Shown here piece after piece: positions 1 through 10,770 of a stretch of 16,495 nt of DNA. The translations under genes were made by a program, and so were the position numbers. The DNA lies in the UHGV virus genome UHGV-0357595; one strand, given 5' to 3'. The DNA is from a virus. The notes beneath the pieces were generated by a model. It was not told where the DNA came from and did no database searches. It was given only the letters and a program-made list of their open reading frames with translations. Positions within the stretch are counted from its first letter, which is position 1, and each line of letters begins with the position of its first letter.

Positions 1-75
1 GTTGTGTGCCTGCTTTTAACCACGTCAGGCGAGGTGGTATCCTTCTTATCCCGAATAACCAAGAAGGAAATCTAT

Positions 76-276
76 ATGACTAAAGAAGAATTTGTCTCTT
101 ATATTTTTGATAAAACGGTTGAAATGTATGCCGCTACTTACGGGGCCTGTAATCCTCTGAATAAACCAGAGGGAAAAGATGATTTCGACAAAATTTACCG
201 CTTCTTGGAGGACCGCTATATCAAAAGCTTAGAGGACGCAGGGATCAAATCCCCAGTGAAGTCACCATTGTCCTGA
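76..276 (+). CDS. hypothetical small protein (66 aa)
   Basis: ATG at 76 preceded by AAGGA (64-68); open frame to the stop at 274-276; 3' end overlaps the convergent minus-strand ORF; no recognisable motif. Confidence 0.4.
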   Translation: MTKEEFVSYIFDKTVEMYAATYGACNPLNKPEGKDDFDKIYRFLEDRYIKSLEDAGIKSPVKSPLS

Positions 277-610
277 GAACTTGCAGGACGTCATGATCAT
301 AACTTCCATCCAAACCGCGACGGCGAATTACTTCTCGTATTACCGGAAGCAGTTCGCTGGAAATCTCGGTGCATATTTCACCTGATAATACGCTTGGCTC
401 AAGTGAGAATATTGGTGAACTTACGGTCTTGGTCTCGACAGTTTCAGAGTCAGTGCCAACATTATAAAGCTCAACGAAAGCGGTCTTGATTTTCCGGGCC
501 AGATCTTTTGCTGGCTCGCTTGCAATATCTTTCCCGATTTCTCGCAGCACAGAATGCAATGTATGAGCTGCTGTTTTCTGTACATCAGACGGTAAATCTT
601 TAAATTCCAT
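245..610 (-). CDS. hypothetical protein (about 121 aa), early-left region
   Basis: Minus-strand ORF from the track (245-622); the second ATG at 610 has GAGG about 7 nt upstream, so 610 is preferred over 622; no recognisable domain. Confidence 0.45.
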   Translation of the reverse strand: MEFKDLPSDVQKTAAHTLHSVLREIGKDIASEPAKDLARKIKTAFVELYNVGTDSETVETKTVSSPIFSLEPSVLSGEICTEISSELLPVIREVIRRRGLDGSYDHDVLQVLRTMVTSLGI

Positions 611-1021
611 TGTCAGCCTCATCAGTCAGTGTTTCTGGCTAACCAGCAACGCGCGCCAGATTCGGTTTTAAACGTTTTGCTTTTGGTATACGTCATGGCG
701 GTGAATGTGCCGTCCTGATTGGGAAACACGCCACATACCAGAGATGTTGTTGCCAAGATCGTTAGTATCCATGTTGACCTCATTTCCCCTTAACGCCGGG
801 TGGCGGAACGTTTTATCTACTGCGCTTTGTATCAATCAACAACTGCCGTCATGTTCGTATGCCTCAGGCTGGCTACTTAGCCCTGTTCAGTGGCTGGATA
901 ACTCGAGGTATTGTCCAGCCGTTCTCTGGTGGGGCGTTGTTTGGATATGCTTATTAAACACAATGCGTTTTCTTATGTCAACACGAAATGTGTTTTGTGG
1001 TGAGTGTCATATGATGATGGT

Positions 1022-2332: not shown

Positions 2333-3121
2333 ATGGCTTCAAACTGGATAAAGCTCGAGGTTATTACGCCGGATAAGCCGGAAATATTCAGGCTTGCTGA
2401 GATTCTGAATATTGATCCAGATGCCGCATTAGGGAAGGTTATTCGCTTCTGGGCATGGGCGGATCAACAAATGATAGACGGTAATGCAGATTGTAACGCT
2501 CGCGGCGTTACAAAAAGTGCAATAGATCGCATCACTTTTATGGCTGGTTTTGCTGATGCGTTAATTCAGGTTGGATGGCTGGTCGAAAATGACGTTGGGC
2601 TTTCTCTACCTAACTTTGAACGTCATAACGGAAAAAGCTCTAAAAAACGGGCGGTTACAAACGAGCGAGTTACAAAAATACGCGAACTGAAACGAAAAGG
2701 TAACGCTGCCAGCGTTACACAAACGGATCAAAAAGCGTTACCAGAGGAAGAGGAAGAGGAAGATCTAAATACTGATCTCCCCCTAAATCCCCCTCGCCAA
2801 AAACGAGCGTCTAAAAAATTCGAGCCGGAGGCTATTGAGCTGCCCGATTGGTTGCCGGAAACACTCTGGCATGAGTGGGTCCGGTTCAGACAGGCATTGC
2901 GAAAACCGATTCGAACGGAGCAGGGCGCTAACGGGGCGATACGGGAACTGGAAAAATTCCGTCAGCAGGGTTTTACACCTGAGCAGGTGATTCGACACAG
3001 CATCGCCAATGAATACCAGGGCCTGTTCGCGCCGAAAGGTGTTCGGCCTGAGACGTTGCTCCGACAGGTTAACACCGTCTCGTTGCCGGACAGTGCGATC
3101 CCGCCAGGCTTCAGGGGGTAA
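2333..3121 (+). CDS. replication initiation / replisome-organiser protein (YdaU / O-like)
   Basis: 262-aa ORF directly upstream of a DnaC-like gene; contains the repeated palindromes in its coding sequence (as the lambda O gene contains ori); acidic EEEEEED stretch at 2744-2764. Confidence 0.65.
   Translation: MASNWIKLEVITPDKPEIFRLAEILNIDPDAALGKVIRFWAWADQQMIDGNADCNARGVTKSAIDRITFMAGFADALIQVGWLVENDVGLSLPNFERHNGKSSKKRAVTNERVTKIRELKRKGNAASVTQTDQKALPEEEEEEDLNTDLPLNPPRQKRASKKFEPEAIELPDWLPETLWHEWVRFRQALRKPIRTEQGANGAIRELEKFRQQGFTPEQVIRHSIANEYQGLFAPKGVRPETLLRQVNTVSLPDSAIPPGFRG
2492..2512. repeat. 21-bp palindrome TGTAACGCT-CGC-GGCGTTACA (copy 2)
   Basis: Same palindrome with one arm mismatch, inside the initiator coding sequence, 192 bp from copy 1. 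Confidence 0.7.
2699..2719. repeat. 21-bp palindrome GGTAACGCT-GCC-AGCGTTACA (copy 3)
   Basis: Same palindrome with one outer mismatch, inside the initiator coding sequence, 207 bp from copy 2; two extra GTTACAA half-sites lie at 2654-2660 and 2669-2675. Confidence 0.7.
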
Positions 3122-3127
3122 CAGACC

Positions 3128-3874
3128 ATGAAAAATATTGCGACAGGAGGCGTTCTGGAGCGTATCCGCAGACTGGCCCCACCACATGTAACCGCCCCAT
3201 TCAGAACGGTTGCGGAGTGGCGCGAGTGGCAACTTGCTGAAGGCCAGAAACGTAGCGAGGAGATCAACCGCCTGAATCGTCAGTTGCGGGTGGAAAAAAT
3301 TCTGAATCGCTCAGGCATCCAGCCGTTGCACCGTAAATGCTCGTTTGCGAATTACCAGGTGCAGAACGACGGCCAGCGATACGCGTTAAGCCAGGCGAAA
3401 TCCATCGCCGATGAACTGATGACCGGGTGTACAAATTTTGCGTTCAGCGGAAAACCTGGTACCGGGAAGAATCACTTAGCGGCAGCTATCGGGAATCGCC
3501 TGCTGAAAGACGGTCAGACAGTGATTGTGGTTACCGTGGCTGATGTTATGAGCGCCCTGCACGCCAGCTATGACGACGGGCAGTCAGGCGAAAAATTTTT
3601 GCGGGAACTGTGCGAAGTGGATCTGCTGGTTCTTGATGAAATTGGCATTCAGCGCGAGACGAAAAACGAGCAGGTGGTACTGCACCAGATTATTGATCGA
3701 CGGACAGCGTCGATGCGTAGCGTGGGAATGCTGACAAACCTGAACTATGAGGCCATGAAAACATTGCTCGGCGAGCGGATTATGGATCGCATGACCATGA
3801 ACGGCGGGCGATGGGTGAATTTTAACTGGGAGAGCTGGCGTCCGAATGTCGTCCAGCCAGGAATTGCGAAGTGA
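3128..3874 (+). CDS. DnaC-like helicase loader (IstB-like AAA+ ATPase)
   Basis: 248-aa ORF; Walker [16 protein letters not shown]; Walker B-like DLLVLDEIG; follows the initiator gene. Confidence 0.85.
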
Positions 3875-3896
3875 TTTTTACCGGGAGGAAATTTTA

Positions 3897-4658
3897 ATGG
3901 AGACTGTTTTTGACGCACTGAAAGCGATGGGAAAAGCCACATCCATAGAACTTGCTGCGCGACTTGATATCAGTCGTGAAGAGGTACTGAACGAGCTGTA
4001 GGAACTGAAAAAGGCTGGTTTTGTTGATAAAAGCGCGTACACCTGGCGTGTGGCTGATAACAACGTTCAGCAGGAACAGCCAGAGCAGGCAGAACTGCCG
4101 GAAGAAACCACCACGGCAACAGTCGCGAAAATTTCGGAGTGCGATTTAACTGCGGCGATTGAACAACGTGGGCCACAAACGGCGGATGAGTTGGCTACAT
4201 TGTTCGGTACCACATCACGCAAAGTAGCTTCAACGCTGGCAATGGCTATCAGCAAAGGACGCCTGATTCGCGTAAACCAGAACGGTAAATTTCGTTACTG
4301 CATACCGGGCGATAATTTACCAGCAGAGCCGAAAGCAGCATCGGTAGCGGAAACTGATGGTAAGGCCTTTCCTCAGCCCACAGGTGTTGCGTTACCAGTA
4401 CAGGAGGCTGCAACACAGGAAGATATTAAAACAGAAACGGTGGCGGACATTGTGCAGTCGCTGCCATCGTTTACTGAAACGCGAGCGGATGACCTGGTTT
4501 TACCATCGCTGCATATGGCAAACCGCGAACTGCGTCGGGCGAAAAATCATGTCCAGAAGTGGGAGCGAATCTGCGCCGCGCTGCGGGAGCTGAACAAGCA
4601 CCGGGATATTGTTCGACATATTTTCGATTCCTCCAGTCGTATTGTGTCGGAAAAGTGA
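3897..4658 (+). pseudogene. hypothetical protein interrupted by an in-frame amber (TAG) codon at 3999-4001
   Basis: ATG at 3897 with GGGAGG 8 nt upstream; the frame is open for 34 codons, hits TAG at 3999-4001, then stays open in the same frame to 4658; the downstream part has only a GTG at 4050 with no Shine-Dalgarno. Confidence 0.6.
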
Positions 4659-4673
4659 TTGCCGGAGGCACCT

Positions 4674-5096
4674 ATGGCAAAAGTATTTACACCAGAAGAG
4701 CGAGAAAAAATTAAAGGGCAGGTTGTTGAACTTGTACGTCTGAGCGGTCGCGAGACGTTACGGGCTCTGGAGGTTAAAACCGGTGCATCAAGGTATTACA
4801 TAAGCACTCTCGCCAGAGAACTGGTCGCCAGTGGTGATGTTTACAATTCAGGCTACGGATTATTCCCGTCTGAGCAGGCGCGTAAGGACTGGCAAAACGC
4901 CCGCAAAAAACTATCCAGGGCAAAGGTGAAAAAAACGGTTGTGGTTGATCCGGACCTTATCTGGTCATTACCAGACGGAGAAATACGCCGCTACGACAGG
5001 CGTCTGAACATAATCTGTCGCGAGTGCAGGAAGAGCGAAGTTATGCAGCGCGTGCTGGCGTTTTATCAGGGGAATTTTCAGGAGGTGGCACAGTGA
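4674..5096 (+). CDS. hypothetical protein (141 aa)
   Basis: ATG at 4674 with GGAGG 6 nt upstream; basic C-terminal half; no confident family call. Confidence 0.6.
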   Translation: MAKVFTPEEREKIKGQVVELVRLSGRETLRALEVKTGASRYYISTLARELVASGDVYNSGYGLFPSEQARKDWQNARKKLSRAKVKKTVVVDPDLIWSLPDGEIRRYDRRLNIICRECRKSEVMQRVLAFYQGNFQEVAQ

Positions 5097-5566: not shown

Positions 5567-6145
5567 ATGAGAGACATTGATGTAAGAAAGGCTGTGCATG
5601 CCAAGATTCTGAGAGATCATCATAAAGATCCTGACACCCTAATCATTGATGAGTTTACGATGAATCTAGGGGCTAGCAGAGCTGATATAGCAGTGATCAA
5701 TGGGCTTATACATGGTTATGAGTTGAAGAGCAAGAGTGATAACTTGCTCAGATTACCAGCGCAGGTGCAACATTACTCATCAGTGATGGATAAAGTAACG
5801 TTGGTTGTCTCTGATTGCCATCTTTATGATGCTTTAAGCATAGTTCCATCATGGTGGGGGATAAAGCAAGTTACGCAAGGTGCACGGCAAGGTATCCATT
5901 TAAAAACAATTCGAACTAGCAAGTTGAATCCACAAGTGGACAAACTTTCCTTAACAATGCTTCTTTGGAAAGATGAATTGCTTTCCCTATTAAGTGATGT
6001 AGGGGAGCTACAGAATTTGAAAAATAAACCTAAACGCGTCTTATGGTCAAAACTCGCCAATAGTATGGATGTTGGCGAGCTTCGTGAAGCTGTTCGAGTT
6101 AAACTTAAAGCCCGTAAAGAGTGGCGAGTTGCTCAACAACCTTAG
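5567..6145 (+). CDS. putative PD-(D/E)xK-type nuclease-like protein (192 aa); possibly sce7726-family
   Basis: ORF in the AT-rich island; motif RADIAVINGLIHGYELK (Asp followed about 12 residues later by Glu-x-Lys) resembles a PD-(D/E)xK core; weak Shine-Dalgarno; family name is a recollection, not a search result. Confidence 0.6.
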   Translation: MRDIDVRKAVHAKILRDHHKDPDTLIIDEFTMNLGASRADIAVINGLIHGYELKSKSDNLLRLPAQVQHYSSVMDKVTLVVSDCHLYDALSIVPSWWGIKQVTQGARQGIHLKTIRTSKLNPQVDKLSLTMLLWKDELLSLLSDVGELQNLKNKPKRVLWSKLANSMDVGELREAVRVKLKARKEWRVAQQP

Positions 6146-7202
6146 TTATGTGATGGTTTTGCCCAATCCTACGCCATACCTCTGGGCTACCAAATTTATA
6201 GTTACCAGAGGGATTGGCTTTGTAGGCTTGATACTCGTTTGCATAATATTCTATGTCTCTATCTCCCGCACAGAATGTAGGCCCTGAATATTCTCGATGA
6301 GCAAGAATATCCTCACTATGTTTACCATATTGTTCATAACCAAAGCGATTAGCTACTCTTCCTCGAAATACCCAAAAGTCATTATCTCCAGAGTATCTGA
6401 CGCTGGCAGATACGCTAGGGAATCGCGTCGAAAGCCTATTAAAGTCGGGGTGCTGTACTCCATAATCACTATAAATCACATTTCTGGCAAGTTCTTTTCT
6501 ATTCATTAAACTCTGCCATAAAATCCACTCGATTCGAGGTTGAGAATATAGACCAACAGAAATATCACTGAGATCTGTAGGAAATGAACCCCCAGAAAGA
6601 ATCACTTTTCTGTATTCATTGAGGTGCGCCAGATTGTTTATCAATCCCATTGCCAACGTATATAGTTCGCCGGAATTAAGTTTATCCTCGGTTAACTCAT
6701 CTCTTAAGTCAATAATTATATCAATATTTGATAAAGGAATTCCCAGATGATTAATGTAATGCGTTATTAATTGTGGGTTAACCAGATCTAACGTGGTTAA
6801 TCTCAAGCATATTTCATTCTGCATTAATTCATCAATCGCTCTTTTATAGTTAGATGGGCGAGTTGGTGAACTGACAGGAATAACTCTTATCCCCATATCT
6901 CTAACTTGATGAACCGCATTTATTATAGGGTAATGATCTTCAGGAGAAATAAAATGCTCTTCAATTAATAATCCATCAATATAAACACCTTGCATATCTG
7001 AGCAAGATTTTGAGACTTTCTTTCCGAACTCTATAAGAGTCTCGTTATAACTCTTTAAGGCAATACCTGAATCAGGGTCAATTGGCACTGGTTCAATTTC
7101 GAGTAATGGCAAAATTTTTGATTTCTTTTCAATGGATAGCTGCGATAAAGCTGATAACTCAGAACGTTTCGCTTTCAGAATAGGAATATATGAAATTGTC
7201 AT
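6105..7202 (-). CDS. hypothetical protein (365 aa), partner of the putative nuclease; possibly beta/sce7725-family
   Basis: Long minus-strand ORF in AT-rich DNA; start ATG at 7202 with AAGGT upstream; N-terminus MTISYIPILKAKRSELSAL; convergent with the 192-aa gene and overlapping it by 41 bp at the 3' ends. Confidence 0.7.
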   Translation of the reverse strand: MTISYIPILKAKRSELSALSQLSIEKKSKILPLLEIEPVPIDPDSGIALKSYNETLIEFGKKVSKSCSDMQGVYIDGLLIEEHFISPEDHYPIINAVHQVRDMGIRVIPVSSPTRPSNYKRAIDELMQNEICLRLTTLDLVNPQLITHYINHLGIPLSNIDIIIDLRDELTEDKLNSGELYTLAMGLINNLAHLNEYRKVILSGGSFPTDLSDISVGLYSQPRIEWILWQSLMNRKELARNVIYSDYGVQHPDFNRLSTRFPSVSASVRYSGDNDFWVFRGRVANRFGYEQYGKHSEDILAHREYSGPTFCAGDRDIEYYANEYQAYKANPSGNYKFGSPEVWRRIGQNHHITKVVEQLATLYGL

Positions 7203-7373: not shown

Positions 7374-7644
7374 TATCAGTCTTTCTTCCATGATGAATGC
7401 TAATGCCATTTGATTTGTTGAGGTGAAAACTGTTAAAAATCAAAACGATGTAATTGAAATGAACGTTCGGTAGCATTCACGCTTTAAATGTTTCTTTTGT
7501 GCTGATTGGATGAATTTTGGTCACTTATGATGAGAGATGTTGCAGGAAAAGAAGTTGGCATTGATCTATTGGATAGTTAGAATTGCTGCGGGTGCTTGAG
7601 GCTATCTGCCTCAGGCATGAACACCAAAAGGCAGATAGAGAAAA

Positions 7645-7711
7645 GCCCCAGTTAACATTACGCGTCCGGCAAGACGCTTAACATTAATCTGAGGCCAATT
7701 TCATGCTTTGC
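7645..7711 (-). ncRNA. candidate Sok-like antisense RNA of the hok locus
   Basis: Minus-strand promoter-like elements TTGCCT (complement of 7741-7746) and TAACCT (complement of 7718-7723), antisense to the hok leader; 3' end not resolved; placed by analogy with hok/sok loci. Confidence 0.3.
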
Positions 7712-7759
7712 ACATGTAGGTTAGCCTCTTACGTGCCGAAAGGCAAGGAGAAGCAGGCT

Positions 7760-7915
7760 ATGAAGCAGCAAAAGGCGATGTTAATCGCCCTGATCGTCAT
7801 CTGTTTAACCGTCATTGTGACGGCGCTGGTAACGAGGAAAGACCTCTGCGAGGTACGAATCCGAACCGGCCAGACGGAGGTCGCTGTCTTCACAGCTTAC
7901 GAACCTGAGGAGTAA
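7760..7915 (+). CDS. hok: Hok/Gef-family type I toxin (51 aa)
   Basis: Translation MKQQKAMLIALIVICLTVIVTALVTRKDLCEVRIRTGQTEVAVFTAYEPEE matches the Hok/Gef family (HokD/RelF-like as recalled); single transmembrane helix; an in-frame upstream ATG at 7703 would extend the frame to 70 codons. Confidence 0.85.
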   Translation: MKQQKAMLIALIVICLTVIVTALVTRKDLCEVRIRTGQTEVAVFTAYEPEE

Positions 7916-8190: not shown

Positions 8191-8403
8191 GTGGAAAAAA
8201 TAAAGAAACTATTTAGTAGCAAATATGCAGTCATACGTCGTGATGACCTGTCAGTTATAGTCGAAATGGATTACTTCCCTGAAACCAAAAAATCAATGAT
8301 GTATCGTAATGGTCGAAAGGCAATTTTTTTACCGATGAGGGTAAGTGACATTATGGGAAATGATAAACTGCAGGATGAATTGCGAGTCAGAGCATCCTGT
8401 TAG
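8191..8403 (+). CDS. hypothetical small protein (about 70 aa)
   Basis: GTG at 8191 with GGAGG (8182-8186) upstream; AT-rich coding sequence preceded by an AT-rich promoter-like region; no recognisable motif. Confidence 0.4.
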   Translation: MEKIKKLFSSKYAVIRRDDLSVIVEMDYFPETKKSMMYRNGRKAIFLPMRVSDIMGNDKLQDELRVRASC

Positions 8404-9915: not shown

Positions 9916-9941
9916 CTCAATCTGTTATCCGGGGCTATATT
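9912..9941 (+). promoter_or_regulatory. PR'-like late promoter
   Basis: -35 TTGACT (9912-9917), 18-bp spacer, -10 TATATT (9936-9941); overlaps the stop codon of the Q-like gene. Confidence 0.55.
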
Positions 9942-10003
9942 CCTCACGCGCCAGCAAAATCTGGCGTCGGGATTAGGAACCCCGGATAGAGACCGCGACA
10001 GAC

Positions 10004-10025
10004 ACACGCCGCGAGCGTGTTTTTT
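10004..10025 (+). terminator. tR'-like rho-independent terminator
   Basis: Stem ACACGC (10004-10009) / GCGTGT (10015-10020) followed by TTTTT (10021-10025); about 60-70 nt downstream of the PR'-like promoter. Confidence 0.6.
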
Positions 10026-10188
10026 ATTGTCGTATGCACGCGCACATCTGAATTATGGTGGGGCGTATGGGGGAGCTGAAAAGCTCGCCGGTTGGTTTCC
10101 CGGTAGTTCCTAACCCTGTACGTCTCACCACCCGATGATTAGGAACCTGACGGTGGTGATGGTTTAGAAACCACCAGAGGGCGTCATT

Positions 10189-10770
10189 ATGACAACTCAA
10201 ATTTCTGTTGAAACTCTCTCCCCGATCACCCATAACCAGATTCCTGTTATTACCACCGAACTTTTGGCGCAGTTGTACGGTGCTGAAGTTAAGAACATTC
10301 AAAATAACTACGCCAGAAATGCTGAGCGCTTTATTGAAGGAAAGCATTTTTTCAAAGTGGCTGGCGATGCCCTGAAAAATTTGCGGGTAGCTTTAAACTA
10401 CTCACAAAATTTGCAACCATCTTTAAGAGGGTTACAAATTTCCCCGAAAGCCCGCTCCCTCATCCTCTGGACAGAACGCGGAGCAGCCCGTCATGCCAAA
10501 ATGCTCGAAACCGATCAGGCGTGGGATGTGTTCGAAAAGCTGGAAGACTGCTATTTCAGACAAAAGGATCCGTCAGCGCCAGTTTCATGCCAGAAAAGTT
10601 ACGACACGCGAGTTCTCTGTTATCAGCGAGGCGGTGTCACTGTTTCCACAATTCAGTTGCGGGATGATGATATTGTTATTTCCCTTGAGTCATGGCTGGA
10701 ACTGGCGAGAGCCAATGGTTGGTTTGTTGTTCGCAGAGATAAACTGGTGGAAAGGTTGATGCAGCTTTAA
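10189..10770 (+). CDS. ORF6N-domain protein (antirepressor-like)
   Basis: 193-aa ORF; N-terminal region with LAQLYG ... NYARNAERFIEGKHFFKV ... LWTERGAARHAKML ... AWDVFEKLEDCYF, which matches the ORF6N domain pattern as recalled; first gene after the tR'-like terminator. Confidence 0.65.
   Translation: MTTQISVETLSPITHNQIPVITTELLAQLYGAEVKNIQNNYARNAERFIEGKHFFKVAGDALKNLRVALNYSQNLQPSLRGLQISPKARSLILWTERGAARHAKMLETDQAWDVFEKLEDCYFRQKDPSAPVSCQKSYDTRVLCYQRGGVTVSTIQLRDDDIVISLESWLELARANGWFVVRRDKLVERLMQL

Follow-up and report, generated by a model that had tools for sequence, protein, structure and literature searches.

A premature amber codon in ydaW of a Rac-like Escherichia coli prophage: very probably a recent nonsense mutation

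Introduction

Classical amber (sus) mutants of lambdoid phages were selected in the laboratory and are kept on supE or supF hosts. They carry TAG within a phage gene, and a suppressor strain conditionally restores the product. Nonsense codons also arise outside the laboratory, in the decay or domestication of prophages, where a rare and recent point mutation can interrupt an accessory gene of an otherwise intact prophage.

A known inactive copy of ydaW (DUF1627) is that of the Rac prophage resident in E. coli K-12. It lies directly after ydaV in the Rac replication module and is cut after codon 151 by a large Rac deletion, which fuses it to the lysis and trkG region; RefSeq annotates the remnant as a pseudogene. 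Intact copies are found in Rac-like and Stx prophages and include WP_139707682.1 (APEC-O117H42), ECs_1946 (Sakai Sp10) and gp17 (Shigella phage 75/02 Stx). Our literature search on YdaW found no functional study, only two listings. One is a census of E. coli transcription factors still uncharacterised (PMC9308461), which includes the protein; the other names overexpressed K-12 ydaW among the prophage genes that block the retron-Sen2 toxin RcaT (bioRxiv 10.1101/2020.06.22.160242).

Here we analyze a ydaW copy interrupted at codon 35 by TAG. It lies in UHGV virus genome UHGV-0357595, a 16,495-nt stretch of DNA that we call the window. A first-pass annotation, made from the letters alone, offered two explanations: a recent nonsense mutation, or a gene whose full-length product depends on amber suppression in a supE-type host. 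We consider it very probable that this ydaW is a very young nonsense pseudogene (W35amber) in a resident prophage, with no programmed suppression.

The locus resembles each of these known systems in part. It shares with K-12 Rac ydaW its family, its place after ydaV and its inactivation in a resident prophage, but the entire coding sequence is present here and one base substitution at codon 35 is the sole lesion. Intact Rac-like and Stx prophage copies agree with it in length, in synteny (loader, ydaW, DUF977/Ren-like gene) and in three-module architecture, and the nearest shares 252 of 253 codons; they differ in having TGG at codon 35 and encoding one protein. The TAG falls within an early-region gene as in sus mutants, yet it is a natural allele in draft isolate genomes, with no evidence of a suppressor and no sign of essentiality. 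Set against prophage decay in general, nothing about it is distinctive: it represents the earliest detectable stage, with one lesion. The case is very probably an ordinary, very young pseudogene of a known prophage gene family.

The locus

The window belongs to a Rac-like lambdoid prophage of E. coli, in whose replication module ydaW lies. The genes leading up to ydaW and the one that follows it are:

1078-1497, - strand: repressor-like gene
1594-1836: cro-like gene
1833-2255: ydaT
2333-3121: replication initiator gene
3128..3874, + strand: ydaV, DnaC-like helicase loader; intact, ending in TGA 3872-3874; product 100% identical over 248 aa to that of the nearest relative of this locus, L001 (NZ_CP172331)
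4674..5096, + strand: DUF977/Ren-like gene; intact, 100% identical to L001, with its own GGAGG (-9.5 kcal/mol)

The ydaV product matches PHROG 50, 'DnaC-like helicase loader' (E = 8.6e-84), and the DUF977 gene matches PHROG 142, 'Ren-like exclusion protein' (E = 3.1e-45). Rightward of DUF977 lie hok/sok, a Q-like region, lysis genes, terminase and portal. ydaW is syntenically tied to the helicase-loader gene: the ydaV-ydaW order is the same in related loci L001-L003, L088-L092 and L094-L105, even where the replication initiator differs.

Between ydaV and DUF977, the frame that starts at ATG 3897 runs for 253 codons on the + strand to a TGA at 4656-4658. Read directly from the sequence, its codon 35 is TAG (3999-4001, + strand), within the codons GAG CTG TAG GAA CTG at 3993-4007. 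This is the only internal stop. Sequence and translation thus bear out the first-pass description of a frame split solely by this codon and otherwise open to 4658, and the good Shine-Dalgarno reported for ATG 3897 is a GGAGG. The features of the frame are:

3884..3888, + strand: Shine-Dalgarno GGAGG, 8 nt 5' of the ATG; anti-Shine-Dalgarno duplex -10.3 kcal/mol
3897..4001, + strand: translated remnant of ydaW, 34 codons and the premature TAG; the same 34-aa product is gene-called on other contigs
3999..4001, + strand: premature amber codon; A4000 is the mutated base and TGG (Trp35) the ancestral codon
4002..4658, + strand: untranslated remainder as predicted, 218 sense codons and TGA; 0 differences from L001; contains the Pfam DUF1627 match
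4050..4052, + strand: GTG, codon 52, the first in-frame start after the stop; anti-Shine-Dalgarno duplex -0.9 kcal/mol

When the frame is read through with codon 35 as Trp, its product matches Pfam DUF1627 (PF07789) with E = 9.3e-100 and 331 bits (cut-off 28.1). The match covers the profile from 1 to 155 of 155 with residues 88-242 (window 4158-4622). The same product matches PHROG 630 with E = 8.4e-130 over positions 1-252 of 253. The interrupted gene at 3897-4658 is ydaW (DUF1627). A chance open reading frame is ruled out by these family-profile matches and by an intact coding sequence that is identical except at codon 35. An uninterrupted frame of about 240-260 residues is expected of DUF1627/YdaW family members, and the TAG at codon 35 breaks it here; the locus belongs to the family by descent, but as a disrupted allele.

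The YdaW family and protein

The family is a narrow one: a search of 1.84 billion proteins gives 197 representative clusters at E <= 0.001. For protein structure we used the AlphaFold2 model of an intact, 95%-identical homologue (P0002). Its mean pLDDT is 62.8, and its ordered parts, at 75-87, form three modules with disordered linkers between them. In window coordinates these are:

3897..4040, + strand: winged-helix domain 1, residues 1-48; AlphaFold2 helices 4-11, 16-23 and 27-40, pLDDT ~80
4125..4316, + strand: winged-helix domain 2, residues 77-140; helices 81-91, 96-103 and 107-119 and a beta hairpin at 124-135, pLDDT ~85
4485..4652, + strand: long C-terminal helix, residues 197-252; one continuous helix in the model, pLDDT ~75

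Residues 4-46 have sub-threshold Pfam matches to HTH_20, TrmB and HTH_Crp_2, and residues 83-130 have a FeoC-like match. YdaW is predicted to bind DNA, and its long C-terminal helix may be an oligomerisation element. Foldseek comparison of the model with the PDB returns generic winged-helix matches only (MarR/ArsR types, FeoC, Z-alpha and the tandem-winged-helix protein ScpB), none with E <= 0.001; searching the PDB by sequence gives nothing below E = 0.4; and PADLOC reports only weak winged-helix-type matches. A specific function is not assigned by any of these searches, which yield nothing beyond generic or weak winged-helix similarity.

Four of five diverged phage homologues have 81-96% identity in domain 1 and only 47-56% in domain 2. 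Comparison of the window gene with 46 distinct intact alleles gives a dN/dS of about 0.08-0.16 (~0.1). This value shows purifying selection, so ydaW is normally retained.

Origin and age of the amber codon

A 961-nt query around ydaW found matches in 3,391 of 5,426 complete E. coli genomes (roughly 60%) in a first search. The best are in E. coli APEC-O117H42 and PEC209, at 99.9% identity. Aligned with L001, the window has a single mismatch in the 961 nt, at position 4000, where L001 has G and the window has A. The annotation of L001 gives an intact DUF1627 gene of 253 aa in this place. The intact 253-aa DUF1627 coding sequence of APEC-O117H42 (WP_139707682.1) is the same as the read-through ydaW product except at codon 35.

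Of 91 related loci, 90 have TGG at codon 35; the set takes in Sakai Sp10, E. ruysiae, 80 IMG/VR contigs and phage homologues at 49-69% protein identity. Trp also occupies position 35 in all 120 of the best homologue cluster representatives. Because the nearest relative differs at window 4000 alone, the ancestral codon is TGG, not CAG. By parsimony, TAG is the derived state, and the lesion is a G-to-A transition at window 4000.

These comparisons bear out the earlier interpretation in part. A near-identical intact relative with a sense codon supports the first of the two proposed explanations, a recent nonsense mutation. The proposed alignment of homologues does reveal a sense codon at position 35, but the suggestion that it had been CAG (Gln) was mistaken: the closest relative and the close homologues examined have TGG (Trp). 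The first-pass annotation also named an observation that would count against an interrupted gene, namely homologues that end at this position and are followed by a separate gene with its own start. The homologues are instead single proteins of 241-256 aa, and two separate genes are thereby ruled out.

Further out in the family, residue 35 varies. Among 94 distant representatives there are 45 with Trp, 36 with Arg, 4 with Gln and 9 with some other residue, including Asn (3) and Lys (2). Trp50, in the wing, is 98% conserved among distant family members. Given its variation, residue 35 probably lies at the surface, on helix 3 of domain 1, and not in the core. That translation stops at codon 35 matters more than which residue was there.

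The TAG allele is genuine and heritable, since it is seen in several independent assemblies. An exact-pattern scan and look-ups of the truncated products (34 aa and 202 aa) yielded five records besides the window. The identical 762-nt allele is present in GCA_001506145.1, GCA_014417105.1 and GCA_001265595.1 and in the Logan assemblies of SRR7236435 and SRR19671039; the scan found it in one IMG/VR contig, which is the same contig as in GCA_001265595.1. Over 4,238 shared bases, a 2-bp indel is the only difference between the five records and the window. The left arm of the window (1-660, with the boundary at 641-660) is unlike that of the other TAG-lineage prophages and matches prophage DNA of E. 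coli C, B and BLR(DE3) at ~98.8% identity. The window is therefore a further, independent (sixth) record of the allele, which thus occurs on at least two recombinant backgrounds.

The allele is also rare. A 61-mer around the TAG has no perfect match among 669 complete E. coli genomes that carry the segment, and none in one-per-species genomes or JGI metagenomes. The nearest TGG relative differs from the TAG lineage at two positions over ~4.2 kb, one of which is the mutation itself. The mutation is very recent, because the remainder of ydaW is wholly unchanged.

Predicted consequences

The amber codon TAG of this prophage lineage arose from the Trp35 codon TGG by one G-to-A change, at window 4000. 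Ribosomes that start at the intact ATG, with its Shine-Dalgarno, would then stop after 34 residues in an ordinary host. The stop would fall inside helix 3 (residues 27-40) of winged-helix domain 1, so that no folded domain would be made. The gene would thereby be functionally knocked out and would be a nascent pseudogene, such as resident prophages accumulate. Loss of function is the expected outcome because the product is truncated at residue 34 of 253, within helix 3, and no Shine-Dalgarno supports a restart.

Eight in-frame ATG, GTG or TTG codons lie 3' of the TAG. Their anti-Shine-Dalgarno duplexes reach ~-5 kcal/mol at best, and none of the eight is preceded by a Shine-Dalgarno. The GTG at 4050 appears to be the only plausible reinitiation point, and it has no Shine-Dalgarno. 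The first-pass statement that there is no credible restart signal downstream largely stands, qualified by the existence of these eight weak starts, and efficient restart after the TAG is not expected.

Little polarity is expected on the downstream DUF977 gene. There is no specific reason for a strong effect, because DUF977 has its own GGAGG and the now-untranslated 657 nt of ydaW have no marked C-rich, G-poor stretch and no excess of terminator-like sites. No strong Rho-loading site is evident in this stretch: over 78-nt windows the C/G ratio peaks at 1.22, under the 90th percentile of 1.37 for the whole 16.5 kb. No promoter-like site was found in the stretch, and its terminator-like sites do not exceed shuffled expectation.

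The locus should be annotated as a ydaW (DUF1627) pseudogene, W35amber, and not as two small genes, which is how the 34-aa and 202-aa gene calls present it. Together with its near-isogenic TGG relatives (APEC-O117H42 and PEC209), the TAG lineage forms a natural knockout/wild-type pair for finding the role of YdaW. Beyond annotation, the allele has little importance.

Alternative explanations

Two alternatives would leave full-length YdaW in place. The probability that the TAG is a sequencing or assembly error for a true TGG is practically negligible: a single base separates it from the nearest relative, as such an error would, but the same allele recurs in three assemblies from NCBI and in two SRA runs assembled independently, and it is linked to two different left-arm mosaics, and the six records including the window rule out a one-off error. 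The gene could also still be in use in an amber-suppressor host (supE/glnV-type or similar) that makes full-length YdaW at a reduced level, the second explanation of the first-pass annotation. Distant family members have Arg, Gln, Asn and Lys at position 35. Since polar residues are tolerated there, a supE-inserted Gln (or a Tyr) might not be disruptive. The base after the stop is a purine (TAG-G), a relatively favourable context for suppression, and at least six records lack secondary decay 3' of the stop, which is also compatible with continued use. Youth fully explains that lack, however, because the nearest TGG allele differs by only one other SNP in 4.2 kb. The TAG is missing from relatives outside one near-identical lineage and from the 669 segment-bearing complete E. 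coli genomes, and natural E. coli isolates rarely carry strong amber suppressors. A search for tRNA genes finds none in the window (16.5 kb) or the related contig L004 (11.3 kb), so neither supplies a phage-borne suppressor tRNA, and an Rfam search finds no RNA family overlapping ydaW. Two neighbouring genes, 5567-6145 and 8191-8403, end in TAG (6143-6145 and 8401-8403) exactly where their homologues end. This rules out a reassigned TAG and therefore leaves no hint of adaptation to a suppressor background. Programmed read-through would lead us to expect a stop conserved among homologues and TAG either avoided as a terminator or repeated in frame; the stop is unconserved, TAG terminates the neighbours, and 27 other genes compared with relatives contain 0 in-frame stops. 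We regard suppression as extremely improbable.

Two further alternatives accept the nonsense mutation and concern what is left of the gene and why the allele persists. Ribosomes that restart at GTG 4050 would make a protein of 202 residues, without winged-helix domain 1 but with domain 2, the DUF1627 region and the C-terminal helix, and possibly with partial function. Such a product is compatible with the pseudogene explanation but distinctly unlikely. The GTG is in frame, 48 nt past the stop; the 202-aa frame (4050-4658) contains the whole Pfam DUF1627 match and is gene-called on related contigs; and there is an analogy, but only that, with early lacI amber mutants, which yield restart proteins at internal GUG, AUG and UUG codons. 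Shine-Dalgarno complementarity at GTG 4050 is nevertheless essentially nil (-0.9 against -10.3 kcal/mol at the native start), and domain 1, which would be lost, is among the best-conserved parts of YdaW. Adaptive loss, in which ydaW is knocked out repeatedly because it is costly to the lysogen or sensed by host defence, with codon 35 a recurrent target, concerns why the TAG allele persists and not what it is. It draws on several independent breaks (codon 35 here, codon 191 in another contig and the K-12 Rac truncation), on an apparent TGG-to-TGA change at the same codon 35 in contigs L102 and L104, and on the block of RcaT by overexpressed K-12 ydaW, from which YdaW may interact with defence systems. 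On the other side, only 2 of 80 IMG/VR copies are broken, a figure that speaks against widespread selected loss; dN/dS is ~0.1; the TGA records are weak; and recurrence at codon 35 is biased by ascertainment. We consider adaptive loss unlikely. A bolder form is very unlikely: that ydaW is a recurrent target of selected inactivation, because the protein is costly or because host defences such as retron toxin-antitoxin modules recognise it or are disturbed by it, with Trp35 in the recognition helix of domain 1 repeatedly hit (TAG here, possibly TGA elsewhere). In a milder version, a restart product without domain 1 would pair with intact YdaW paralogues in polylysogens and have a dominant-negative effect.

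Other broken copies of ydaW

Among the broken copies, L028 (IMGVR_UViG_2897346870_000004) has an independent change of TCG to TAG at codon 191 (contig 1771-1773), and L006 and L007 share the truncation of K-12 Rac. The TGA in L102 (3509-3511) and L104 (3292-3294) is equivalent to window 3999-4001. The TGA allele has 42 differences in 762 nt (~5.5%) from the window, and the upstream modules of L102 and L104 differ. Both records are weak: L102, from a metagenome, has 1.4x coverage, and L104 breaks off one base past the stop. TGA at codon 35 is therefore tentative. We did not find the TGA allele in complete genomes, IMG/VR or JGI metagenomes, nor TAG on an L102-type background in IMG/VR.

Recurrence at codon 35 would be unremarkable, because the product look-up retrieved 34-residue products only and Trp35 accounts for 2 of the 22 transition routes to a stop. 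In all, 91 single-step nonsense routes exist in ydaW; 22 are transitions, of which Trp codons provide 6.

Five related contigs (L100, L101, L103, L104 and L105), each from another assembly, end within a few bases of codon 35, at the equivalent of 3997-4002. These ends could reflect assembly-graph branching between ydaW paralogues or alleles, and the look-up by 34-residue product biases the pattern.

Other observations in the window

The DUF1391 gene (622-783, - strand) has a 2-bp deletion at 740-790, after codon 9, relative to L001 and the five other TAG records. It throws the canonical start (MDTNDLGNNESLVCG...) out of frame, and an alternative ATG further upstream, at 783, opens a reading frame of 53 codons with a different N-terminus. 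The deletion may be a second private lesion of the window prophage or a sequencing error.

A convergent, overlapping gene pair lies at 5567-7202, between DUF977 and hok/sok. One gene encodes a 'sce7726'/P4 cII-like protein (PADLOC cll, E = 2.4e-28) and the other a 365-aa 'beta family' protein (PADLOC PD-Lambda-2_C, E = 2.2e-41). Relatives such as L093 have a different cassette at this spot (an ATPase, a STAS-like protein and a hypothetical protein), which suggests a defence-gene hotspot.

Rfam identifies a sok antitoxin RNA adjoining hokD at 7590-7765 (119.8 bits; region 7590-7915). It also identifies isrK and a C4 antisense RNA with a1/b1 targets at 9935-10135, just 5' of an ORF6N-domain gene at 10189-10770. 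The arrangement at 9935-10770 resembles a P1/P7-type antisense-controlled antirepressor module.
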